Shown here: piece by piece, positions 17,193-57,032 of the stretch
Position numbering within the stretch: position 1 is the stretch's first letter
Layout of the letters: the number at the start of each line of letters is the position of its first letter
Assembly (NCBI RefSeq): GCF_002854065.1
Contig: NZ_CP024147.1
Direction: 5' to 3' (one strand)
Origin: Escherichia coli
GTDB taxonomy: Bacteria; Pseudomonadota; Gammaproteobacteria; Enterobacterales; Enterobacteriaceae
Length of the DNA: 64,000 nucleotides
Translations under genes and position numbers: made by a program
The notes under the pieces: generated by a model
Seen by the model: only the letters and a program-made list of their open reading frames with translations
Told to the model about the DNA's origin: nothing
Databases searched by the model: none

Positions 17193-19904
<2,712 letters not shown>

Positions 19905-19964: not shown

Positions 19965-20249
19965 ATGAATATGAAACCGGAAAGCAAAGAAGCGCCAATC
20001 AATATCAGAGCGAAAGCCTCACAGCGTGACCTGATTGATATGGCAGCGAATCTGGTCGCAAAATCGCGCACTGATTTTATGCTGGATGCCGCATGCCGTG
20101 AAGCGCAAGACATCTTATTAGATCAACGACTATTCATCCTTGATGACGAGCAATACGATGCGTTTCTCGCTGCCCTGGACGCCCCCATCACTGCTGAGCG
20201 TCAGGCCAAAATTAACGCGTTGATGAATCGTAAATCGCCATGGGAATAA
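19965..20249 (+). CDS. DUF1778 (ribbon-helix-helix) antitoxin of a GNAT-type type II TA pair (94 aa; TacA/AtaR/KacA-like)
   Basis: MNMKPESKEAPINIRAKASQRDLIDMAANLVAKSRTDFMLDAACREAQDILLDQRLFILDDEQYDAFLAALDAP... fits the DUF1778 pattern; 3' end overlaps the next ORF by 10 nt. Confidence 0.7.
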   Translation: MNMKPESKEAPINIRAKASQRDLIDMAANLVAKSRTDFMLDAACREAQDILLDQRLFILDDEQYDAFLAALDAPITAERQAKINALMNRKSPWE

Positions 20250-20725
20250 CGGCTCCTACTCCCCTAACGTCTGAACATAATCTGGCTGACTTTTGCTGTT
20301 CCGATCACGGGATGAATGAATGGCTAAAAAAGAAAGCATTAAAAAATCACAGCTCCGGTCTGTCTCGTGTTTACGTTATCTGTATTGCCAATACCCGCCA
20401 GGTAATCGGCTATTACTGCCTTTCTACAGGCAGTATTCAACGTAATTTGGCCCCTGGAGCCATGCGACGTAATGCTCCCGAATCGTTGCCTGTTGTCGTA
20501 TTAGGCAGACTGGCAATTGATCAAGCCTGAGCAGGTAAAGGGTTGGGCGTCGCATTGTTGAAAGATGCAGTCTATCGCACAATGTCCATAGCTCAACAGG
20601 TAGGGGTTCGTGCGCTCATTGTTCATGCCTTAGACGATTCAGTACGCAATTTCTATCTGAAGTATGCCTTTGTACCTTCACCATTCCAGTCACTTACCTT
20701 ACTGTATCCCATTACTCTGGAGTAA
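20240..20725 (+). pseudogene. GNAT-family acetyltransferase toxin (TacT/AtaT/KacT-like) interrupted by an in-frame TGA at 20528..20530
   Basis: ORFs 20240..20530 and 20543..20725 are in the same frame; translation ...PLTSEHNLADFCCSDHGMNEWL...VVLGRLAIDQA*AGKGLGVALLKDAV... carries the GNAT acetyl-CoA motif split by the stop. Confidence 0.7.
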
Positions 20726-20774: not shown

Positions 20775-21806
<1,032 letters not shown>

Positions 21807-23033
21807 TTATCCTTTTACGCACACCACCTGACGCAGGGTGTAGATAACTTCCACCAGATCGCTTTGTGCCGCCATCACCGCATCAATATCTTTATACGCC
21901 ATCGGGATTTCGTCGATCACTTCGGCATCTTTACGGCATTCCACATGCGCGGTAGCACGAATTTGATCTTCCACGCTGAACAGTTTTTTCGCTTTAGTAC
22001 GGCTCATTACCCGCCCGGCACCGTGGCTGCATGAACAGAACGACTCTTCATTTCCCAGCCCACGGACGATAAAGCTTTTCGCTCCCATCGACCCTGGAAT
22101 AATTCCATATTGACCAGCACGCGCAGACACCGCGCCTTTACGCGTCACGTAGATCTCTTCACCAAAGTGCTGTTCTTTTTGCACATAGTTGTGGTGACAG
22201 TTGATCTCTTCCATCGCCAGCGTTTGTGGCTGTCTGACCGTTTTCTGCGTAATGCTCTGCAACGCCGTTACTACGTTTTCCATCATCGCATCGCGGTTAA
22301 GGCTGGCAAAAAGCTGCGCCCAGGCCACGGCTTTCAGGTAATCATCAAAGTATTCCGTACCTTCCATAAAGTACGCCAGATCACGCGACGGCAATGTTTC
22401 AAGCGTTTCCTGCATCTCTTTTTGCGCCAGATCGATAAAGTAAGTCCCGATGGCATTACCAATTCCGCGTGAACCGGAGTGCAGCATAATCCACACCTGG
22501 TCCGACTCATCAAGGCAGATTTCAATAAAGTGGTTACCCGTTCCCAGCGTTCCCAGGTGTTTATAGTTGTTAGTGTTAAGGAAACGCGGATATTTTTGCG
22601 TTAACCACTGATAACCGGCCTCCAGCTCAGCCCATTTCGCATCGACGTTAACAGGCGGGTTTTCCCATGCGCCTTTATCACGTTTACAACGTCCGGTAGT
22701 ACGCCCGTGCGGCACGGCCGTTTCAATCGCCTGACGCAGCTCCGCCAGGTTTTCAGGCAGATCTGCCGCCGTTAACGCGGTACGCAGCGCGTTCATTCCA
22801 CAGCCAATATCCACGCCCACCGCCGCCGGAATAATCGCCCCTTTGGTCGGGATCACGCTACCAATGGTGGAACCTTTACCCAGGTGTACATCAGGCATTA
22901 CCGCAATATGTTTGAAAATAAACGGCATCTTCGCCGTATTAATAAGTTGCTGACGCGCATCGGCTTCTACCGGCACGCCTTTGGTCCACATTTTTACCGG
23001 GGCATTTTCAGTGGTCAGTAATTCGTAATTCAT
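21807..23033 (-). CDS. rtcB: RNA-splicing ligase RtcB (408 aa)
   Basis: 408-aa ORF MNYELLTTENAPVKMWTKGVPVEADARQQ... Confidence 0.96.
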   Translation of the reverse strand: MNYELLTTENAPVKMWTKGVPVEADARQQLINTAKMPFIFKHIAVMPDVHLGKGSTIGSVIPTKGAIIPAAVGVDIGCGMNALRTALTAADLPENLAELRQAIETAVPHGRTTGRCKRDKGAWENPPVNVDAKWAELEAGYQWLTQKYPRFLNTNNYKHLGTLGTGNHFIEICLDESDQVWIMLHSGSRGIGNAIGTYFIDLAQKEMQETLETLPSRDLAYFMEGTEYFDDYLKAVAWAQLFASLNRDAMMENVVTALQSITQKTVRQPQTLAMEEINCHHNYVQKEQHFGEEIYVTRKGAVSARAGQYGIIPGSMGAKSFIVRGLGNEESFCSCSHGAGRVMSRTKAKKLFSVEDQIRATAHVECRKDAEVIDEIPMAYKDIDAVMAAQSDLVEVIYTLRQVVCVKG

Positions 23034-23069
23034 TTTGTTTTTCTCTTTTCGTTGGTATGTCCTGATAAT

Positions 23070-23086
23070 TGCAACCGTCGTGCCAG
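23070..23086 (-). promoter_or_regulatory. Sigma-54 (-24/-12) promoter of rtcBA
   Basis: Minus-strand sequence CTGGCACgacggTTGCA matches TGGCAC-N5-TTGCA, about 35 bp upstream of the rtcB ATG and next to divergent rtcR. Confidence 0.8.
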
Positions 23087-23219
23087 AAAATTAAATAAGC
23101 AGATTAATTTTTTAATTCATTGTTTTAAAAAAGATTATATCTTTACGTCCGTAACCGGAGATTTCCCGCAAAGCCGATTTACCGATAATGAAATATCGTC
23201 TTTTATAAGGATATCTAAG

Positions 23220-24818
23220 ATGCGTAAAACAGTGGCTTTTGGCTTTGTCGGAACGGTGCTGGATTATGCCGGGCGCGGCAGTCAGCGCTGGTCGAAATGG
23301 CGTCCGACGCTTTGTTTATGCCAGCAAGAATCGTTGGTCATCGATCGACTGGAATTATTGCATGACGCCCGCTCGCGCTCGCTATTTGAAACGCTTAAAC
23401 GCGATATCGCCAGCGTTTCGCCAGAAACAGAAGTGGTGAGCGTTGAGATTGAACTGCATAACCCGTGGGATTTCGAAGAGGTTTACGCCTGCCTGCATGA
23501 TTTCGCCCGTGGTTACGAGTTTCAACCAGAAAAAGAAGACTATTTAATTCACATCACCACCGGCACCCACGTCGCGCAGATTTGCTGGTTTCTGCTGGCG
23601 GAAGCGCGTTATCTACCCGCCCGGTTGATACAATCTTCACCTCCGCGCAAAAAAGAACAACCGCGCGGCTCAGGTGAAGTGACGATTATCGATCTCGATC
23701 TAAGCCGTTATAACGCCATCGCCAGCCGCTTTGCCGAGGAACGCCAGCAAACGCTTGATTTTCTTAAGTCCGGCATTGCCACGCGTAACCCCCACTTCAA
23801 CCGCATGATTGAGCAGGTTGAAAAAGTGGCGATTAAATCCCGCGCACCGATCCTGCTTAACGGCCCGACCGGTGCGGGTAAGTCGTTTCTGGCACGACGC
23901 ATTTTCGAATTAAAACAGGCGCGGCATCAGTTTAGCGGCGCGTTTGTGGAAGTGAACTGCGCCACCTTGCGTGGCGATACCGCCATGTCGACGCTGTTTG
24001 GTCATGTAAAAGGCGCGTTTACCGGGGCGCGGGAATCCCGTGAAGGATTATTACGTAGCGCCAACGGTGGAATGTTGTTTCTTGATGAGATTGGCGAACT
24101 GGGCGCAGACGAACAGGCAATGCTGCTGAAAGCCATTGAAGAGAAAAACTTTTACCCGTTTGGCAGCGATCGCCAGGTGAGCAGTGATTTTCAGCTCATC
24201 GCCGGAACGGTGCGCGATTTACGCCAGCTGGTTGCCGATGGCAAATTCCGCGAAGATCTATACGCGCGGATCAATCTCTGGACCTTCACCCTGCCGGGGC
24301 TACGCCAGCGTCAGGAAGATATTGAACCTAACCTGGATTATGAAGTGGAGCGCCACGCTTCACTCACCGGCGACAGCGTGCGTTTTAACACCGAAGCGCG
24401 GCGCGCCTGGCTGGCCTTTGCGACATCTCCCCAGGCAACATGGCGCGGTAACTTTCGCGAGCTTTCTGCCAGCGTCACGCGAATGGCAACCTTTGCCTCT
24501 AGCGGACGCATTACTCTGGACGTGGTTGAAGATGAGATAAACCGTCTGCGCTATAACTGGCAGGAGAGCCGCCCCTCCGCGCTTACGGCGTTGCTGGGCG
24601 CAGAGGCAGAAAACATCGATCTCTTCGACCGTATGCAACTGGAACACGTTATCGCTATCTGCCGCCAGGCAAAGTCGCTTTCCGCAGCCGGACGCCAGCT
24701 TTTTGACGTTTCGCGCCAGGGCAAAGCCAGCGTCAATGACGCGGATCGGCTACGCAAATACCTGGCGCGTTTTGGTCTGACGTGGGAAGCATTGCAGGAT
24801 CAGCACAGCTCCAGTTGA
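23220..24818 (+). CDS. rtcR: Sigma-54-dependent activator RtcR (532 aa)
   Basis: ORF 23052..24818; start set at [20 protein letters not shown]; AAA+ motifs GPTGAGKS and GAFTGA; 3' end overlaps glpR by 19 bp. Confidence 0.93.
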
Positions 24819-25558
24819 ATATGGTGGTCCGTCAGCACCTGCATCACGCTTACTGGCGGCGGGGCGTCGGTGTAGACGGCATCTACCATGCTGATGCTGC
24901 CCATATTGACCATCGCGTTACGGCCAAATTTGGAGTGATCGACAACCAGCATAACGTGGCGCGAGTTCTCAATAATGGCGCGTTTGGTGCGAACTTCGTG
25001 GTAATCGAACTCCAGCAGCGAGCCGTCGCTATCGATGCCGCTTATCCCCAGAATGCCGAAATCAAGGCGGAACTGGGAGATAAAATCGAGCGTCGCTTCG
25101 CCAATGATCCCGCCATCGCGGCTGCGTAATTCGCCACCGGCGAGAATAATGCGGAAATCTTCTTTTACCATCAACGTGTTAGCAACATTGAGATTGTTGG
25201 TGACAATGCGCAAATTGCTGTGATTGAGCAGCGCGTGCGCCACCGCTTCCGGCGTGGTGCCGATATCGATAAACAGCGTCGAGCCGTTGGGGATTTGCTC
25301 CGCCACTTTACGGGCAATCCTCTCTTTTTCTTCGGTCTGGGTGGCTTTACGATCGTGCCACGGCGTGTTAACCGAACTGGAAGGCAGCGCCGCACCGCCA
25401 TGATGGCGCAGGATCAGGTTTTGCTCTGCCAGTTCGTTGAGGTCGCGGCGAATAGTCTGCGGGCTGACGGAGAAGTGCTCCACCAGCTCCTCGGTACTGA
25501 CATAACCCTGCTGTTTAACCAGTTCGATAATACCGTTGTGACGTTGTGTTTGTTTCAT
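24800..25558 (-). CDS. glpR: DeoR-family glycerol-3-phosphate regulon repressor GlpR (252 aa)
   Basis: ORF 24800..25609; start set at MKQTQRHNGIIELVKQQGYVSTEELVEHF. Confidence 0.94.
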   Translation of the reverse strand: MKQTQRHNGIIELVKQQGYVSTEELVEHFSVSPQTIRRDLNELAEQNLILRHHGGAALPSSSVNTPWHDRKATQTEEKERIARKVAEQIPNGSTLFIDIGTTPEAVAHALLNHSNLRIVTNNLNVANTLMVKEDFRIILAGGELRSRDGGIIGEATLDFISQFRLDFGILGISGIDSDGSLLEFDYHEVRTKRAIIENSRHVMLVVDHSKFGRNAMVNMGSISMVDAVYTDAPPPVSVMQVLTDHHIQLELC

Positions 25559-25574: not shown

Positions 25575-26417
<843 letters not shown>

Positions 26418-26449: not shown

Positions 26450-26854
<405 letters not shown>

Positions 26855-28533: not shown

Positions 28534-28632
28534 TGCCTGATGCGCTACGCTTATCAGGCCTACGTGGTTTATGCAATATGTTGAATTTGCATGATTTTGT
28601 AGGCCTGAGAAGGCGTTCACGCCGCATCAGGA
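28534..28632. repeat. Pair of inverted REP elements (BIME-like) downstream of glpD
   Basis: tgcctgatgcgctacgcttatcaggcctacg and gtaggcctgagaaggcgttcacgccgcatcagg match REP consensus in opposite orientations. Confidence 0.7.
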
Positions 28633-28684: not shown

Positions 28685-29287
28685 TTACCGCAAAGCCCAC
28701 GCCATCATACCCAACGTAACAAAACTCAGGCACGTTCCCCACTCACTCCACTTCCGTATCTGGCTTCTATTTTTGCTACGCCACTGGCAATAATATCCCA
28801 ACGCAAAACCAAGCTGTGCGCTTATTGGACCGATAAAATCCGTCCACGGCTGAGGCCAAAATGGCGAAAAATTCAGGGGTAGCCAGACAACAAGCAGAAA
28901 GAAATTGCGGATACTTTCCAGCAACGCAATTTTCGCTGGCGCGATGTAAAAAATGATATTCCAGAGGATCAACCATAAATAGACCGGTGCGAATACCAAC
29001 CAACAATGGAGCCTGCTTTTCAATTCAGATTGAGTTCTACGAGTAAATTGCCAACCAACGCAACACATTACACAGAAGAAAAGCGCATATTCAGCCGATA
29101 ACCAAAGTTGTAATTGCAGAAGTGAAATACGCCTGATCATGAGCGGGATTGAGAACAGCATTTCCCCCAGAAAACTCAGCGTGATAATACAAGCAGCCAG
29201 CGCAACCACCATCGGCCACACCAACAACGGCACAATAACAAAGCCGAGAAATAACGGATAAATATAAAGTCTGATTATATTCATCAT
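28685..29287 (-). CDS. Polytopic inner-membrane protein, unknown function (200 aa); third gene of the PstS-like operon
   Basis: Hydrophobic ORF MMNIIRLYIYPLFLGFVIVPLLVWPMVVALAACIITLSF... with about 5-6 predicted TM segments; ATG overlaps the upstream gene's stop by 1 nt. Confidence 0.6.
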   Translation of the reverse strand: MMNIIRLYIYPLFLGFVIVPLLVWPMVVALAACIITLSFLGEMLFSIPLMIRRISLLQLQLWLSAEYALFFCVMCCVGWQFTRRTQSELKSRLHCWLVFAPVYLWLILWNIIFYIAPAKIALLESIRNFFLLVVWLPLNFSPFWPQPWTDFIGPISAQLGFALGYYCQWRSKNRSQIRKWSEWGTCLSFVTLGMMAWALR

Positions 29288-30279
29288 TATTGTCCTGATG
29301 ATTCGGGGGATGCTTCATACAGCAGCACATACCCCACATCCTCTACCAACTGTTGCCCCTGCTGACTTATAAACCAGTCAACAAATTTCTGCGTTTCCGG
29401 CGTGGGATTTTCACGCGTCACCATATAGGCATCCACAATGTATGGATAAGTGCCGTTGCGGATATTTTCCTCGGTAGGCGCAACGCCATTTATAGCCAAA
29501 AGTTTAATCTGCTTGCGCATTTTGAGCATATTGTCATTCATACGAGTGACGTAATAGTGGAAGGTGTACCCAATGGAAGATGGCGTGTTTTGATAGTCGG
29601 CAACTTCAGTAATTAAACCGCCCATAAGATCAATCACAGTAGATTTTTTAGCTGGCAGCATTGGGGTGTCTTGCATAACCAATCCCTTCATAATCGTTTG
29701 GCTTCCAGAATCTTCAGGGCGCTGCCAGACTTTTATATGTTCGTCACTACCACCTACTTTATTCCAGCGGCTAGTTTTGCTGCTAAAAATATCTTTAACC
29801 TGGTGCTCAGAGAGAGAATTTACCGGGTTATTAATATCAACGATAAAGACAAAGGCTTCGCGGGCGAAAGCGGTATATTTCAGTTTAACACCCGCTTCTT
29901 CTGCACGTTTTTTCTGTCCTTCCGACGGTTGTGCAACAAAAATAACCGTCGCGGAACCTTTAATCAGACTATCGTAGGCTTCAGCTGTTCGGGTTTGCTG
30001 CAAACCATACGCCTGCCAGGCCAGCGAGGTTCGATCCTTATCTTTTGGCTCGGGTACTAATTTATAATACGCGGAGGCATACAGCGGGTATAAGGCTGTA
30101 GCGCCGTACACTCTCGGCCATCTTGACCAATCATCGCTGTAACGTAATGCAGGTTGCCCCCGCAGAGACGTCAGTCCATGGCTCTCTTCTTCCCTGACGC
30201 TGTTATAGTACCCTTCCCGGTCGACACATCCCGCCAGTAACGCCGTGCCTAATAGTAAAACACCGGTGAATTTATTCAT
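29287..30279 (-). CDS. PstS-like (PBP_like_2 fold) periplasmic-binding lipoprotein (330 aa)
   Basis: ORF 29287..30342; start set at MNKFTGVLLLGTALLAGC (lipobox LAGC); PstS-like motifs GATALYPLY, RPEDSGSQT, SIGYTFHYY. Confidence 0.7.
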   Translation of the reverse strand: MNKFTGVLLLGTALLAGCVDREGYYNSVREEESHGLTSLRGQPALRYSDDWSRWPRVYGATALYPLYASAYYKLVPEPKDKDRTSLAWQAYGLQQTRTAEAYDSLIKGSATVIFVAQPSEGQKKRAEEAGVKLKYTAFAREAFVFIVDINNPVNSLSEHQVKDIFSSKTSRWNKVGGSDEHIKVWQRPEDSGSQTIMKGLVMQDTPMLPAKKSTVIDLMGGLITEVADYQNTPSSIGYTFHYYVTRMNDNMLKMRKQIKLLAINGVAPTEENIRNGTYPYIVDAYMVTRENPTPETQKFVDWFISQQGQQLVEDVGYVLLYEASPESSGQ

Positions 30280-30304
30280 CTCGCTGATTCCTTTCTCTCG
30301 AGCG

Positions 30305-31822
30305 TTATTCCATTGTTGGATACAGCGGCACATATCCCACATCTTCTACCAGACTCTGCCCCTGCGGCGTTAAAAACCATTCGACCAGTTTTTGTGTTTC
30401 TGACGTTGTATTTTCCCTCGTTACCATAAAGGCATCGACGATATAGGGATATTTGCCGTTGCGAATATTTTCCGCAGTCGGTGTAATACCGTTAATCGCT
30501 AGCAGTTTTATATTTTTATCAGCATTCATTTGCGTCGCGTAATAGCGGAAGGTATAGCCTATTGCGTTGTTTGTATTACGGTATTCGGCAACGACTTTAA
30601 TCATTCCCTCCATCACGCTTGCCACTTCCATTTCCTGCGGCGAGATCATGCGGACATTTTTCATGACCTGTGATTGCATCACTGTCTGGCTGCCAGAGTC
30701 TTCCGGGCGCTGCCAGGTCTGGATCTCCTGATCGTTACCGCCAACAGTACGCCAGTTGGTAATTGCACCACTGAAAATGTCACGCACCTGTTGTTCAGTC
30801 AGGGAATTAACCGGATTATCCGCATTGACGATGAAAACGAATGCTTCACGGGCAAAGGGGGTGTACAGCAAAGTGACACCAGATTCCTTTGCACGTTTTT
30901 TTTGCCCACCGGAAGGTTGCGCCACGAAAATAATATCAGCATCGCCCTTAACGATTTTGTTATATGCTTCTGGCGTACGAGAGTTTTCCAGATAATCCCA
31001 AACGTGAAAATCCTCTGGTATTACACTTAATGCATAAAATGCAGAAGCATAAATTGGGTACGCAGCCGTGGCGCCATCGATTCGCGGCCAGTTTTGCCTA
31101 AACTGAATTTGCGGTTTGCCACGCAGCGGCGTCAGTCGATTATTGAGTTTATCGGGTTGCCAGGCCCAGATATCAATATTTTCGCGTACACCGACACCAG
31201 GATTGAGCTGTTTATATAAATAACCCTGATAACCAGCGACAAAACCAAGCATGAGAAGGATAAACAGGAGGGAATTACGGCAACGTAGCCCGGATGTACC
31301 GGTTAAAGGATGTCTGGTTGGCCGGCCGTACCCCAGCGAAAAACTGATATGCGCGCCAACGGGTATAATGACTATCCACCAGTACTCACCTCCGACTACT
31401 GAGACTAACAAAACGCCCAGCCAGGGGAGCATAAGATCAGCCAACCAACCCGATCCCATCTGGTGAAATTGATAATCTGCCAGATGCAGCGCGATTATCC
31501 AGCCAACCAGGATTAATAAAGCGGGTACTAAAAAAAGACATTGTCGCCAGACGGCTATTTCTCTTTTTTCTGGTGCACTATCGCCTGCCCATACTCGCCC
31601 CGAGAAAAATAGCATTAATGCGCCCAGCGCCAGCATAAAAATGTTGAGCAGAAGGTAAATTGTTGGCGTGATAAGGATATTACAAACTTCAATAATACCG
31701 GCAAGTCCGACACCCAGCATAGCAACAACCGCCGCCAAAAATTGCGTCAGTATGGGGATGCCGAAAAAAGTCATTACCAGCGAGGACAAAATCCATTTTC
31801 TGTTTTGCATTATTCTTTCCAT
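30305..31822 (-). CDS. Fusion protein: N-terminal polytopic membrane domain (about 190 aa) plus C-terminal PstS-like binding domain (505 aa)
   Basis: N-terminus hydrophobic (MERIMQNRKWILSSLVMTFFGIPILTQFLAAVVAML...); C-terminal half paralogous to the lipoprotein (GATAAYPIY, RPEDSGSQT, AIGYTFRYY); alternative start at 31810; TATAAT on minus strand at 31840..31845. Confidence 0.65.
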   Translation of the reverse strand: MERIMQNRKWILSSLVMTFFGIPILTQFLAAVVAMLGVGLAGIIEVCNILITPTIYLLLNIFMLALGALMLFFSGRVWAGDSAPEKREIAVWRQCLFLVPALLILVGWIIALHLADYQFHQMGSGWLADLMLPWLGVLLVSVVGGEYWWIVIIPVGAHISFSLGYGRPTRHPLTGTSGLRCRNSLLFILLMLGFVAGYQGYLYKQLNPGVGVRENIDIWAWQPDKLNNRLTPLRGKPQIQFRQNWPRIDGATAAYPIYASAFYALSVIPEDFHVWDYLENSRTPEAYNKIVKGDADIIFVAQPSGGQKKRAKESGVTLLYTPFAREAFVFIVNADNPVNSLTEQQVRDIFSGAITNWRTVGGNDQEIQTWQRPEDSGSQTVMQSQVMKNVRMISPQEMEVASVMEGMIKVVAEYRNTNNAIGYTFRYYATQMNADKNIKLLAINGITPTAENIRNGKYPYIVDAFMVTRENTTSETQKLVEWFLTPQGQSLVEDVGYVPLYPTME

Positions 31823-43512: not shown

Positions 43513-44715
43513 TTACCTGAACTGATAATGACCTTCGCCCAATCGGATAACCCTTCCCTCTTCTTCTGCGCGGTTCAGCCACACACTAATTTGTTCGATG
43601 GTTAAACCAGTACAAGACGCCAGCCTTTCAATACTTATCGATTCCTTTGCAAGGATCGCCAGTTCCGCCACAAAGAGTTGATAAAAATCGACAGGCGTAT
43701 ACGCGGGCATTACTGCGTAATTTGCGTCATCTTCATGCAGCGAAAACAGTTCTGGTTGAGCGTTACGGAGTGCTCTGTCATACATCAGCCCAGGAACGTC
43801 TGGCAGTCTGATCGTCACATTCTCAGCCTGTTCAGCACTCCATGACGCCCCATTTTCTACTAATCGTGAATTGGCTGATTGCATATCCTGATTTGGTTTA
43901 ACCTGCACAGGCAGCCACTGATGTTTTAATGCCTCCATCGCCCCGGTTATCGTTCCACCGGTCATTCCCGCACGTACAACCATTGCGCTTTCAGCAAGGC
44001 AATAAATATATTTATTTCGCGCCATCGCATTGCCGACGGTGAAACGTACCTCTGGGTAAAACGGCGAAATCAACACCAGGTTGCCTGCTATAAGCCCTTC
44101 ACGCCATTTCACTAACGTACTCGTTTTTAACAAGCTATCAGCTAATACGCCAACGGCAGTTCCCCCGGCCTCCAGTACCGACGCCATTGCACATTCATCA
44201 ATACCTCGCGCACCACCAGAGATAACGCAAATCCCCTGTTGGGCCAGTTTCGCGGCCAGTTGTTGGGTATAGCGCAAATCGTCAGTCGGAGCATCTCGCG
44301 AGCCAACAATCGCCATACCTTCCGCTTGCAGTAATGCTTTATTCCCGCAGCCAAATAAAACGGGAGGTGCATCCGTTCGCAATCGGTTTTTCAAGCGAAC
44401 GGGATAATCAGCATCTCCGCGGGTTAAGATCCATAAACCGGCGCGTTGCCACTTATCTACCGCCAACGCCAGACTATGACCACGCGCCAGCAAGCCAAGA
44501 ATACGCTCCTGAGAAATACGCGGATCGCTCCAGCCTGTAAGTTTCTCTTGCGGTTGCGGCACCAGAAGCTCGGCGGGACTGATACGTTGGTGCTTCAGCC
44601 ATAATGCAAACTTCCCCCATTCACTATTACTAAGAGGTTTATACTCACTCGCCGCCGCGCGAGAAAAATCGCTGGTTAGCAGGAGAGTTGCTTGTGCATT
44701 GGCTGAAAGATTCAT
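43513..44715 (-). CDS. DprA/Smf-like Rossmann-fold protein (about 400 aa), candidate antitoxin of a PsyrTA/ShosTA-like module
   Basis: ORF 43513..44808; DprA signature MAIVGSRDAPTDDLRYTQQLAAKLAQQGICVISGGARGIDECAMASVLEAGGTAVGVLADSL; start favoured at MNLSANAQ, whose ATG overlaps the upstream TGA (ATGA-type coupling). Confidence 0.75.
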   Translation of the reverse strand: MNLSANAQATLLLTSDFSRAAASEYKPLSNSEWGKFALWLKHQRISPAELLVPQPQEKLTGWSDPRISQERILGLLARGHSLALAVDKWQRAGLWILTRGDADYPVRLKNRLRTDAPPVLFGCGNKALLQAEGMAIVGSRDAPTDDLRYTQQLAAKLAQQGICVISGGARGIDECAMASVLEAGGTAVGVLADSLLKTSTLVKWREGLIAGNLVLISPFYPEVRFTVGNAMARNKYIYCLAESAMVVRAGMTGGTITGAMEALKHQWLPVQVKPNQDMQSANSRLVENGASWSAEQAENVTIRLPDVPGLMYDRALRNAQPELFSLHEDDANYAVMPAYTPVDFYQLFVAELAILAKESISIERLASCTGLTIEQISVWLNRAEEEGRVIRLGEGHYQFR

Positions 44716-46822
44716 CAATTTTTTACCGAGGTAGAAGCAAGGGCAAGAGGATAAACCGTCGGGCAACCTGCCTGGCGTAACAGTGCTGTCAGAACTGTCA
44801 GCGTCCATGCAGAATCCACGATATCGTCAACCAGCAACGCCGGACCAGGCATCAAAGGAGGGGTAATCACAAACGCCCCGTCGAGATTTTGACACTGGTG
44901 GAAACGGTTTTGCTGCATTTTCTGCGGTGGATTGTCCACGACTTTTTCAATGGCATCAATAATAGGTAAGCCAAGTTTCGCCGCCAGTCGCCGGGCAAAA
45001 TCAGGAACCAGGTCGAGGTGCTTTAATGAAGGAACGCAGCATACCCAGGTTGGTTCAGGATGCGGATTCCAGCGTTGGCGAACCATTTCCGCACATGCCT
45101 CCACCAGTTCATCACTGAATCGCCCCGTTTTTTTCTCCTGTGCTACCTGCTTTCCCCACCCGGAATCTCCCCAACGAGAAAGGATTCGCCCCGTAGATCC
45201 TTGTAAAATCGCAGGCAAGTTCCCTTTAAATCCGTATTGCGTAAAAGCCCCAGCTGCCACCTGTTTATTGAGATTTAATGACAGGTCAGCGTGTTTAATA
45301 AATAAGTTTGCCGCATGGAGTAAGCCGCTATCAATGTCGGGCGACAACAACGGATGCTGAAGACAACTGCTACATTTACCACAATGTTCGGCACCTGGCT
45401 CATCGAGTGCGCGGCGCAGAAATTGCATTTTGCACTCCTTGGTCGTGATATAGCTTTCAACGTCTGCCAGCTCACTTTTTCTCTGATTCATCAAATGGTT
45501 AATTCGTTCATGGTCAGGAGAAAAACTGACAATTGTTCTGCGCCATAATTTCTCGGTATACACCACAGGCGATGGATTTTCAGCTACCAATAATTTCAGT
45601 GCTTTTTCTATTTGCCCATAACGGAGATTCGTCCGTTGTTCAATGCCTCGTAAGGTAAGACCGTCATTCACGCTAAGTACGTTGAGTATTTCATGAATTT
45701 GCGCCTCCGCAGGAAAGGCGCTTTCACGGAAGAATTTATGAATAGCACGGTCTTCACTGCCGCAAAGCAGTATGCCAACAGCAGAATCGATACCGCGACC
45801 GGCACGCCCCACCTGTTGGTAGTAACCAACTATCGAACCTGGCATCTGGTAATGAATAACAAACCCCAAATCCGGTTTGTCAAAGCCCATTCCCAGCGCC
45901 GTTGTCGCAACCAGCACTTTAATTTTATTTGCCAGCAACGCCTGCTCCAGATATTCCCTGGCAGTATTAGAATCTTCCGCGCCTTCACAAGTCACGCCGC
46001 TGTAGTAAGCAAATGCACTGATACCATTTTTCCTTAACCACTCGGCGACAAGTTCGGCATCGCGAGTAGTCAGGGTATAAACAATTCCCGATTTGGAAAA
46101 CTGAGGGAAAACTGAGGGATAACCGTTGCTAACCATGCCAGACGGGATGACTGTTCACCTAAGACTAAGGCATCAAGCGCCAAACTTTCGCGAGCCAGCG
46201 TTCCACGCTGAATCACAATGTCACCCAATTGCTGACGGATATCCTCAACGACACGGTTATTCGCTGTCGCGGTTGTACCCAGAACAGGGGTATTCGCAGG
46301 TAGTTGGCGCAAAATATCTAATATACGTCGGTAATCCGGGCGAAAATCGTGGCCCCAATCAGAGATGCAGTGCGCCTCGTCGACCACAAGCAAGCCAATA
46401 TGATCGGCTATAGGATATAAAACCGTTTCGATAAAGTCCTGGTTTGCCAAACGTTCCGGGGAAACCAGCAAGCAATCGACCTCACCTTGCAGCAACTTAT
46501 CGCTAATGCGCTGCCATTCTTCTCTGTTTGTAGAATTCAACGTTTCAGCCGTAATACCTAACCGTTCAGCGGCGGCAACCTGGTTACGCATCAGGGCAAG
46601 CAAAGGAGAGATGATAATTGTCGGGCCAGCGCCGCGATCGCGGAAGATTTTACTGGCGATGAAGTACACAGCACTTTTCCCCCAGCCAGTGCGTTGGACA
46701 ACCAGCAGTTTTCGCCGTTGGTTCACCACCGCGTCTATGGCTTCCCATTGCCCTTCCCTGAAAGTAGCGGTGGTATTTCCTAACATCCGCTGTAAAAGCA
46801 ATTCAGCTGCGTGCTTTTCCAT
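44715..46822 (-). pseudogene. RecQ-like helicase fused to a C-terminal PRTase domain (PsyrT/RqlH-like toxin candidate), frameshifted by an 11-bp tandem duplication
   Basis: ORF 46070..46822 has helicase motifs I-III (QRTGWGKS, VVDEAHCISDWGHDFRPDYRRI, GTTATA); ORF 44715..46136 in another frame has helicase motifs IV-VI (YQQVGRAGRG) and a PRTase motif (LLVDDIVDSAWT); deleting one repeat copy at 46096..46117 joins them into about 698 aa. Confidence 0.75.
46095..46119. repeat. 11-bp perfect tandem duplication (GAAAACTGAGG x2) inside the helicase gene
   Basis: Forward ...tttgGAAAACTGAGGGAAAACTGAGGgat...; on the coding strand both frames read PQFS across the copies. Confidence 0.9.
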
Positions 46823-46924
46823 CTTTATCTCCTGCGATCTTTAGGCAGTGATTAGAACGGATTATTTGCAGGTAAATTTGCGAGAGAGATCAAAAAGATG
46901 AAGAGAGGAGAAAAGAGAAATGAA

Positions 46925-46948
46925 TTACTGCGAGCAAGCTCGCAGTAA
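46925..46948 (-). terminator. Hairpin downstream of gntU (candidate terminator)
   Basis: TTACTGCGAGC-aa-GCTCGCAGTAA perfect inverted repeat, then TTCATTTCTCTTTTCTCC on the minus strand; sits between the gntU stop and the helicase start. Confidence 0.5.
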
Positions 46949-46961
46949 TTTGTCGCAGTAA

Positions 46962-48302
46962 TTAACTCAACAGCTGGAACGCAATCATCCCAACGATGGC
47001 ACCGACAGTGCCGAGGATGGTTTCCATCATGGTCCAGGTTTTCAGCGTTTCGGCTTCGGTCGCGCCGGTAAATTTACCGAACAACCAGAAACCAGCGTCG
47101 TTAACGTGGCTGACAACAATCGAACCACCGGCGATACAAATCGACAGCGCCGCCATTTGCGCACCGGAGTAGTTCAGTTGTTCAATAACCGGCATCACCA
47201 GTCCCACCGCCGTTAAACAGGCAACGGTTGCAGAACCCTGAATGATGCGCACTGCAGCGGCCAGCACGAAGCAGGTGATGGCAATCGGCAGGCCCATGCC
47301 GGTTAACGCTTCGCCCAGTGCCGGACCTACGCCAGAGTCAACCAGCACCTGTTTGAACACGCCGCCCGCACCAATCACCAGCAGAATGATCCCCGCCGGT
47401 TGCAGCGCGTGACCGCAAATATCCATCACTTTGTCTTTTGGCATGCCCTGACGCATTGCCAGGCCATAAATCGCTACCAGACAAGCAACCAGAATCGCGG
47501 TAAACGGATGACCAATAAACTCGAACCATTCGTAAGCGGTAGAGCCTTCCGGCACAAAACGCGCGGCAATGGTTTTCAGCCCCACCAGCACCAGCGGCAG
47601 CAGGATCAGCGACAGGCTGAATCCGAAGGACGGCATTTTGCCTTCGCCGAGATGCGGCTCGCTGATGTCGTCAGGAATATGCAGCTCAACGTAACGGCTG
47701 ATGAAGTTACCCCACAGCGGCCCGGCAATAATCATTCCCGGAATTGCCGCACACAGGCCAATCAGGATCATCCAGCCAAAATCGGCGTTCATCTGCGATG
47801 CCAGCAGCATTGGCGCTGGCCCAGGCACCAGGAACGCCGCCGCGGCCGCCACGCCTGCGAATAATGGGATTACCAGCTTCACCAGGTTCGTACCGGTGTG
47901 GCGCGCCATTGAGAAAGCAACGCTAATCAGCAGAACAATCGCCACTTCAAAGAACAGCGGTAGCGCACAGACCAGCCCCGCAAGGCCGATGGCATAATGC
48001 GCGCGGCTGTGACCGAAGGATTTGAGCATTTTGACGGCAATCTGATCGACTGCGCCGGTTTCATGTAAGATCTTGCCAAACATAGCTCCCAGGGCGACAA
48101 CCACCGCCAGGAAGCCGAGGGTGCCTCCCATCCCTTTTTCCATCGTCGCTGCGATTTTATCGAGCGGCATACCGGAAAAAAGGCCAGCCCCCATGGACAC
48201 CACCATTAAAGCCAGGAAAGCGTGCATACGCGCCTTCATGACTAAAAACAGCAGCAGTAAAACAGACCCTACTGCTGTTAAAACAAGCGTTAATGTAGTC
48301 AC
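46962..48302 (-). CDS. gntU: Low-affinity gluconate transporter GntU (446 aa)
   Basis: 446-aa polytopic ORF MTTLTLVLTAVGSVLLLLFLVMKARMHAFLALMVV..., GntP family. Confidence 0.95.
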   Translation of the reverse strand: MTTLTLVLTAVGSVLLLLFLVMKARMHAFLALMVVSMGAGLFSGMPLDKIAATMEKGMGGTLGFLAVVVALGAMFGKILHETGAVDQIAVKMLKSFGHSRAHYAIGLAGLVCALPLFFEVAIVLLISVAFSMARHTGTNLVKLVIPLFAGVAAAAAFLVPGPAPMLLASQMNADFGWMILIGLCAAIPGMIIAGPLWGNFISRYVELHIPDDISEPHLGEGKMPSFGFSLSLILLPLVLVGLKTIAARFVPEGSTAYEWFEFIGHPFTAILVACLVAIYGLAMRQGMPKDKVMDICGHALQPAGIILLVIGAGGVFKQVLVDSGVGPALGEALTGMGLPIAITCFVLAAAVRIIQGSATVACLTAVGLVMPVIEQLNYSGAQMAALSICIAGGSIVVSHVNDAGFWLFGKFTGATEAETLKTWTMMETILGTVGAIVGMIAFQLLS

Positions 48303-52047: not shown

Positions 52048-52169
52048 GATTTCGTCCTTTTTAAGGTGGTTATTTACACCTTAGCGCAAAGCGGACGTGG
52101 TTCCTACTGGAGTGCGCATAACGAACACAAGCACTTCCCGAGGATAAATTGAGAACGAAAGATCAAAAA

Positions 52170-52259
52170 AAAAGCCAGCACCCGGCTGGCTAAGTAATAC
52201 TGGAAGCAATGTGAGCAATGTCGTGCTTTCAGGTTCTCCGCGAGGGTCTTCCTGATCGC
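52170..52259 (-). ncRNA. ryhB: Iron-responsive small RNA RyhB (90 nt)
   Basis: Minus-strand GCGATCAGGAAGACCCTCGCGGAGAACCTGAAAGCACGACATTGCTCACATTGCTTCCAGTATTACTTAGCCAGCCGGGTGCTGGCTTTT matches RyhB as I recall it, with the terminator hairpin plus T-run. Confidence 0.9.
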
Positions 52260-55965: not shown

Positions 55966-57032
55966 ACTCGTTGTCCTGTTTCACCATCAAAAAGATGCAG
56001 CTGATTTTCCGCCAGATGCAGCCACAGCGTGCTGCCTGCCGTCGGGCGCTCCTGATGCGCCAGTCGCACCACCAGCTTCTGTTCGCCCCAGCGTCCGTGC
56101 GCCAGGTTATCTGCGCCGAGGATCTCCAGCGTGTCCATCACCAGCGGTACGCCGCCTTCTGCCTGCGAGCTTAGCGCAATATGTTCCGGGCGAATGCCGA
56201 GAGTCATTTTACGCCCGGCATACTGACGGTAGCCACCGTTTAGCGGTAGCACGATACCGCCGTCCAGTTCAAAATGCGTGCCTTCATTATTCACGCGGCC
56301 TGTCAGCAGATTCATCGCCGGACTGCCAATAAAACTCGCCACAAACAGGCTGGCGGGCTTTTCGTAGACTTCAACTGGCGTGCCAATCTGTTCGGCAACG
56401 CCGCCGTTCATCACCATTACTCGCTGGGCGAGCGTCATCGCCTCAACCTGATCGTGAGTAACGTAGAGTGATGTCGTTTTCAGGCGACGGTGCAGCTGTT
56501 GCAGTTCAAGACGCATCTGTACGCGCAGCTTGGCATCGAGGTTAGAGAGTGGCTCATCAAACAGGAACACCGCCGGATCGCGCACAATCGCGCGGCCCAT
56601 CGCCACACGCTGACGCTGACCGCCGGAAAGCTCGCGCGGGCGGCGCTTAAGCAGACCGTCCAGTTCCAGAATGCGCGCCGCCTCTTTAACGCGCTCGGCA
56701 ATTTGCTGCTTGCCCATGCCGCGAATTTTCAGCCCCCACGCCATGTTTTCTTCAACACTCATATGCGGATAAAGCGCGTAGTTCTGGAACACCATCGCAA
56801 TCCCGCGATCTTTCGGCTCCATTTCGGTCACCCGCTGGTCGTTGATCCAGATATCGCCTTCCGTCACCCGCTCCAGCCCGGCAACCATGCGCAGCAGCGT
56901 CGATTTCCCGCAGCCTGACGGCCCGACCATCACGATAAATTCGCCATCCGCCACATCAAGGGTCAGCGGTTTAATCACCTGGGTTTTGCCATCCCAGCTT
57001 TTGGTTACTGCCTGTAATTTCAGTCCTGCCAT
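55962..57032 (-). CDS. ugpC: sn-glycerol-3-phosphate ABC transporter ATPase UgpC (356 aa)
   Basis: ORF 55962..57071; start set at [20 protein letters not shown]; Walker [10 protein letters not shown], signature LSGGQRQR. Confidence 0.95.

Follow-up and report, generated by a model that had tools for sequence, protein, structure and literature searches.

The RNA-repair regulator gene rtcR and the glycerol repressor gene glpR converge in Escherichia coli and share the last 19 bp of their coding sequences. We examined this junction in a 64,000-nt stretch of one strand of E. coli DNA (referred to as the window; positions are counted from its first letter unless an MG1655 coordinate is named). Our reading, to which we give a probability of roughly 80%, is that the two unrelated regulator genes overlap tail to tail in a way that is real but incidental. 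The length of the overlap follows the stop codon of glpR: a single T/C difference at position 24801, silent for GlpR, toggles it between 4 and 19 bp. The features discussed below are collected in Table 1.

Table 1. Features at and around the rtcR–glpR junction, in window coordinates
Feature	Position	Strand	Basis
malT, other edge of the rtc region	17199..19904	+	
rtcR CDS, 532 aa, sigma-54 activator of rtcBA	23220..24818	+	ORF; Pfam; RefSeq
3' part of the glpEGR transcript beyond the glpR stop, untranslated, antisense to the rtcR 3' end	24466..24799	-	Adams et al. 2021; coarse end
Hypervariable rtcR-only tail codons (EALQD, EAVQD, ESVQD, EMLKD)	24785..24799	+	alignment
Shared stretch, 19 bp, TCAGCACAGCTCCAGTTGA	24800..24818	both strands	stop positions of rtcR and glpR
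glpR stop codon, TGA	24802..24800	-	
Toggle codon, CAG (Gln528 of RtcR) here; TAA (rtcR stop) in Salmonella and Superficieibacter	24801..24803	+	
rtcR stop codon, TGA	24816..24818	+	
glpR CDS, 252 aa	24800..25558	-	ORF; Pfam; RefSeq
glpG, upstream gene of the glpEGR operon	25575..26405	-	
glpE, upstream gene of the glpEGR operon	26450..26776	-	

The earlier note on this DNA had named the two genes and placed a 19-bp convergent overlap between them, and both statements hold. The two stop codons were located in the sequence, and the PGAP annotation agrees. Pfam recognizes an RtcR domain (residues 2–185) and Sigma54_activat (187–354) in RtcR, and HTH_DeoR (6–61) and DeoRC (74–231) in GlpR, matching the RefSeq names; the GlpR of the window is 100% identical to WP_000815099.1. 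With their Pfam domains and with orthologs in several genera, both are genuine conserved protein-coding genes. The shared DNA encodes (D)QHSSS followed by the stop of RtcR on the plus strand and (I)QLELC followed by the stop of GlpR on the minus strand. Throughout it, the two genes have their third codon positions in common (24803, 24806, 24809, 24812, and 24815), which is phase 123:213, the register of the minimal 4-bp convergent overlap.

The overlap is already known and ordinary, and it is no statistical anomaly. RefSeq (PGAP) gives the same 19 bp in strain 100416, in the K-12 derivative MGY, and in MG1655 (NC_000913.3; rtcR at 3558268..3559866 and glpR at 3559848..3560605), and 1 kb around the junction is 100% identical to strain 100416. 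The locus was found in all but one of 5426 complete E. coli genomes (5425), and a 35-mer across the junction, with at most two mismatches allowed, in 5399; wherever the sequence was read, the mismatches lay outside the 19 bp. All E. coli sequences that were read carried the 19 bp unchanged, and the common variants fall outside them, at 24824 and 24827. There are 58 convergent overlaps in E. coli according to Lillo and Krakauer (2007; PMC2174442), and the 64-kb window has a second one annotated, of 14 bp between ugpQ and yhhA (56421..56434).

Why the overlap measures 19 bp can be read from relatives. A scan of our genome collection with RtcR returned 18 loci and missed Salmonella, which was recovered through its GlpR homolog; the rule described here was drawn from 10 rtcR-adjacent loci. 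Base 24801 doubles as the middle position of the glpR stop codon, the one that separates TGA from TAA and TAG, and the rtcR codon at 24801..24803 has two bases in common with that stop codon. The seven in-register loci with glpR TGA (six Escherichia lineages and Klebsiella oxytoca) all have CAG as the rtcR codon, an overlap of 19 bp, and an RtcR tail of DQHSSS. The two loci in which glpR ends in TAA or TAG have TAA as the rtcR codon and an overlap of 4 bp: Salmonella (glpR TAA, junction TTAA) has an RtcR of 527 aa ending in LQN, and Superficieibacter (glpR TAG, junction CTAA) has one ending in KEMAN. Intestinirhabdus also has glpR TGA; there a 7-nt deletion upstream has put rtcR in another frame, giving an overlap of 35 bp and the tail STAPAEYGDR.

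These comparisons show a mechanical rule, in which rtcR abuts glpR in the minimal 4-bp convergent register. A glpR stop of TAA or TAG makes the rtcR codon TAA, so that rtcR stops there with 4 bp shared; a glpR stop of TGA makes it CAG, and translation of rtcR runs through five further codons (QHSSS) until it meets a stop in frame, with 19 bp shared. Stops in the rtcR frame across antisense glpR occur once per 31 codons on average, so an extension of five codons is an unremarkable chance outcome. Outside the Enterobacteriaceae, RtcR ends 5–12 residues past a conserved Trp, and its gene has no glpR neighbor. Outgroup tail lengths would favor the short, 4-bp form as the older one, but the long form is common to Escherichia and K. 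oxytoca.

The pair fits the class described by Lillo and Krakauer (2007; PMC2174442). As in their pairs, two genuine opposite-strand genes have common 3' ends, and a stop codon that is lost or absent leads to extension up to the next in-frame stop; the TTAA and CTAA junctions of the 4-bp relatives are among the four tetramers given in that study. At 18%, phase 123:213 is the least common one for convergent overlaps of at least 5 nt (PMC2174442), and rtcR and glpR are in it because a 4-bp-type junction was extended by 15 nt. We find no essential difference between this overlap and known convergent overlaps made by a change of stop codon.

No intergenic DNA, and with it no intrinsic terminator, separates rtcR from glpR. 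The earlier note had remarked that there was no room for one, and neither a consensus scan nor folding traced any at the junction. The scan returned five terminator-like sites in 4 kb (5.6 expected from shuffled sequence), none of them at the junction; the 200–230 nt past the two stops folded with z-scores no stronger than −1.7 and −1.6, and no convincing intrinsic terminator emerged on either strand. One candidate was considered and rejected. An inverted repeat of 9 bp, GC-rich and followed by TTTT (CGCGCCAGG...CCTGGCGCG; 24713..24769, plus strand), lies within rtcR at a distance of 47 nt from the stop codon and looks like a terminator. The repeat is broken in K. oxytoca and in Intestinirhabdus with no compensating change, and has probably arisen by chance from codon choice. 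Terminators of convergently overlapping genes must sit within the coding sequence of the partner, and Rho-independent terminators have been predicted for only 23 of the 116 such genes in E. coli (Lillo and Krakauer 2007; PMC2174442).

Adams et al. (2021; PMC7815308, Supplementary file 2) compared RNA coverage of MG1655 with and without bicyclomycin over 800-nt windows, which makes positions coarse. They defined 1078 bicyclomycin-sensitive termination regions, the largest class of which (51.5%) is antisense to a gene; a Rho score above 2 means at least twofold more read-through. One minus-strand region, at MG1655 3559514, is classed as antisense to rtcR. Without the drug, 154 reads lay upstream and 29 downstream of it; with the drug, the counts were 153 and 256 (Rho score 8.9, p = 2.7e-27), in a strain whose glpR is frameshifted (PMC7815308). 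By coordinate mapping this corresponds to window position 24466, which lies ∼334 nt beyond the stop of glpR. The region belongs to the largest class in that study, and transcription ends there well over 50 nt past the end of translation, as Rho requires (PMC7815308). In one direction at least, then, transcription runs antisense into the partner gene: in MG1655, glpR-strand transcription does enter rtcR (Adams et al. 2021).

The MG1655 data have to be read with the glpR allele of that strain in mind. The glpR of MG1655 and of a K-12 derivative carries a 1-bp deletion after codon 50 (equivalent to window ∼25240..25410). In both a premature stop follows at codon 106, and the gene is annotated as a pseudogene or as frameshifted; in MG1655, 440 nt are left untranslated. 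The glpR of the window strain is intact. Because the frameshift leaves these 440 nt untranslated, Rho may load earlier in MG1655 than in strains with an intact glpR, such as the window strain. The C/G ratio past the glpR stop is 1.42 at 24799..24720, 0.7–0.9 in between, and 1.1–1.2 at 24599..24460, a modest enrichment that is not decisive for a rut site, which would be C-rich and G-poor. The Term-seq tables of Adams et al. (2021) hold no curated 3' end within MG1655 3559300..3560499, for the rtcR transcript included, and the SMRT-Cappable-seq supplements mention neither rtcR nor glpR. For MG1655, then, the published data show glpEGR transcription passing antisense into rtcR, where Rho stops it a few hundred nucleotides in. 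We infer that transcripts of rtcR likewise end inside antisense glpR, through Rho or through polymerase collision, and that the overlap itself has no dedicated regulatory role.

Relatives without the rtc genes show what else can stand at the same end of glpR. The gene order in the window is malT (plus strand), a TacA antitoxin gene and a GNAT toxin pseudogene (plus), rtcA and rtcB (minus), rtcR (plus), glpR (minus), glpG and glpE (minus), and glpD (plus). In Enterobacteriaceae that have no rtc genes, glpR converges directly on malT, so the rtc genes occupy a position between glpR and malT. In one such genome (L028, 3756..3780), the spacer between glpR and malT measures 18 bp and consists of a hairpin, TAAACCGCC-TTGC-GGCGGTTTTTA, also given as AAACCGCC-TTGC-GGCGGTTT; the stop codons of both genes sit in its A-tract and T-tract. 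From its sequence, this hairpin looks like a minimal bidirectional intrinsic terminator. Such terminators occur between convergent genes (Ju et al. 2019, as presented in bioRxiv 10.1101/2022.10.23.513370). The rtc-less relatives match this type, with a GC hairpin, flanking A- and T-tracts, and an 18-bp spacer, whereas the E. coli rtcR–glpR junction has neither hairpin nor spacer. Enterobacter and Shimwellia have 80–100 bp with GC-rich hairpins between glpR and malT. E. coli has another hairpin after malT and no such hairpin at the glpR end. As judged by these comparisons, glpR is without an intrinsic terminator where the rtc genes are present.

The convergent arrangement of rtcR and glpR has been kept in at least five genera. 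Within E. coli, ∼571 of the 5426 complete genomes (∼10%) are without the body of rtcR, and in these glpR and the junction are intact. In EC958 (ST131) and AVS0283, a 3.2-kb deletion (window ∼21204..24434) has taken away rtcB together with the 5' part of rtcA and ∼1.2 kb from the start of rtcR. The 3' remnant of rtcR that is left, annotated at 399 bp, still overlaps glpR and spans the published zone of Rho termination.

Several other observations concern this neighborhood and the rest of the window. In NCTC11023, a deletion removes the 3' end of glpR, the rtc genes, and malT, fusing the 5' part of glpR to a 3' remnant of a glucan phosphorylase gene beside malQ. A GlpR variant of 259 aa from sources labeled Salmonella (L035 and L036, 3001..3780) has lost its stop and ends in LELC-RPITGEM; next to it are a glucan phosphorylase gene and malQ, instead of rtcR or malT. 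Between malT and rtcA of the window lie the TacA-family antitoxin gene (19965..20249) and the GNAT-family toxin gene (20240..20725), the latter annotated as a pseudogene with an internal stop; EC958 is without both and has a 42-bp spacer with a hairpin there instead. Two genes for PstS-family phosphate-binding proteins and a hypothetical gene between glgP and glpD (28685..31813) look accessory. Between gntU and yhgN (43513..48021) is a DEAD/DEAH helicase pseudogene split by IS5, followed by a DprA-like gene. Rfam reports two small RNAs on the minus strand, RyhB (52166..52230; 83 bits, above the gathering score) and ES036/CssrF (28556..28598; 39.3 bits, just above the cut-off of 37.6).

We also considered which of the two genes holds the shared DNA constant. 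GlpR ends in LELC and a stop in 108 of its 120 best homologs, down to 79% identity (Rouxiella), and RtcR tails vary by genus (DQHSSS, STAPAEYGDR, KEMAN, LQN), with overlaps of 4, 19, or 35 bp. The most variable part of the RtcR alignment is 24785..24799, immediately before the overlap, with indels in Intestinirhabdus and Superficieibacter. Within the 19 bp, substitutions among Escherichia species and K. oxytoca are confined to 24809 (C to T) and 24815 (T to C), both synonymous in both genes; these few changes are silent in both because the wobble positions coincide. It is mainly the conserved C-terminus of GlpR (QLELC) that holds the shared DNA constant. Together, the constraint on GlpR and the shared wobble positions explain the conservation of the 19 bp.

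Two other explanations of the overlap were weighed. The idea that it is an artefact of annotation or ORF calling, one gene truly ending earlier, is almost certainly wrong. It draws on the fact that the ORF list is too long at both 5' ends (it begins rtcR at TTG 23052 and glpR at TTG 25609, against real starts at 23220 and 25558), so the ORF track is not wholly reliable. The 3' ends, however, are fixed by stop codons and involve no choice; neither gene contains an in-frame stop before its own, and the start and stop check against orthologs that the earlier note had proposed confirmed both stops, neither gene ending earlier than its ORF. GlpR keeps its terminal LELC and stop in the 108 homologs, RtcR keeps DQHSSS and its stop in K. 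oxytoca as well as in Escherichia species, PGAP and the MG1655 reference give the same overlap, and the junction 35-mer recurs in the 5399 genomes. We also regard it as highly improbable that the 19-bp form itself has been selected, for example, for a functional QHSSS tail or because it physically locks the genes together. The 19 bp and DQHSSS are indeed the same in Escherichia species and K. oxytoca, while RtcR overall is only 84% identical, but the constraint on GlpR and the coincident wobble positions account for this. The tail is moreover missing from the RtcR of Salmonella, from that of Superficieibacter, and from the frameshifted one of Intestinirhabdus; no Pfam domain of RtcR extends past residue 443, and no solved homolog aligns to it past residue 438.

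Returning to the incidental overlap that we favor, its main competitor is regulatory. The earlier note had raised the possibility of coupling between the RNA-repair regulator and the glycerol repressor, a suggestion that gained no support here. As a functional convergent excludon, the pair would let glpEGR read-through depress RtcR expression, or the opposite, by way of colliding polymerases or of duplex cleavage by RNase III, and glycerol or carbon status would then be linked to RNA repair. We think this very unlikely, even though any full-length mRNAs of rtcR and glpR would necessarily be complementary for 19 nt or more, glpR-strand transcription extends ∼300 nt or more antisense into rtcR, and five genera or more retain the convergent arrangement. 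Convergent excludons occur frequently in E. coli; 165 have been reported in MG1655 as found in at least 50% of 58 transcriptomes (ExcludonFinder, PMC12288877). Like these, rtcR–glpR has transcription of one gene, glpR, invading the antisense strand of the other; unlike them, it is outside the 165 pairs, and its antisense read-through is seen from the glpR side. Neither rtcR nor glpR occurs in the table of the 165 pairs (Table 1 of PMC12288877), which does include the yhhA–ugpQ pair of the same window. That the pair is missing from one such list counts only weakly against it, given the low expression of rtcR and the pseudogene annotation of glpR in MG1655. Also against an excludon, malT is the partner of glpR in genomes without rtc, the overlap length is not conserved (4, 19, or 35 bp), and the ∼571 E. 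coli genomes without the body of rtcR have an intact glpR. Six papers in the library searched name both genes; one has them only as table entries, and the others, judged by title and abstract, deal with matters other than the overlap. Both genes encode low-expression regulators, and collisions should hence be rare; RtcR is controlled post-translationally, through its sensor domain. A further reading is quite unlikely as well: glpEGR read-through would weakly restrain RtcR synthesis under some conditions, to a degree set by Rho activity, and the remnant of rtcR (∼385 bp) would persist in rtc-deleted lineages as the Rho-dependent terminator of glpR. If that were so, inhibition of Rho or strong glpEGR transcription would lower the capacity to induce RtcBA RNA repair.

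The finding as such carries little weight, since the overlap has stood in the annotation of E. coli K-12 for years, and genome-wide descriptions exist both for its class, convergent overlaps arising from a changed stop codon, and for its consequence, transcripts that terminate within the neighbor, usually through Rho. What our analysis adds is an explanation of its length, with glpR TGA giving 19 bp and TAA or TAG giving 4 bp, and a comparison with rtc-less relatives, in which a compact, putative bidirectional terminator stands at the same end of glpR. The locus could be used as an example in teaching. It may also offer a natural test case for the replacement of an intrinsic terminator by Rho-dependent termination once a neighbor has been placed against a gene.
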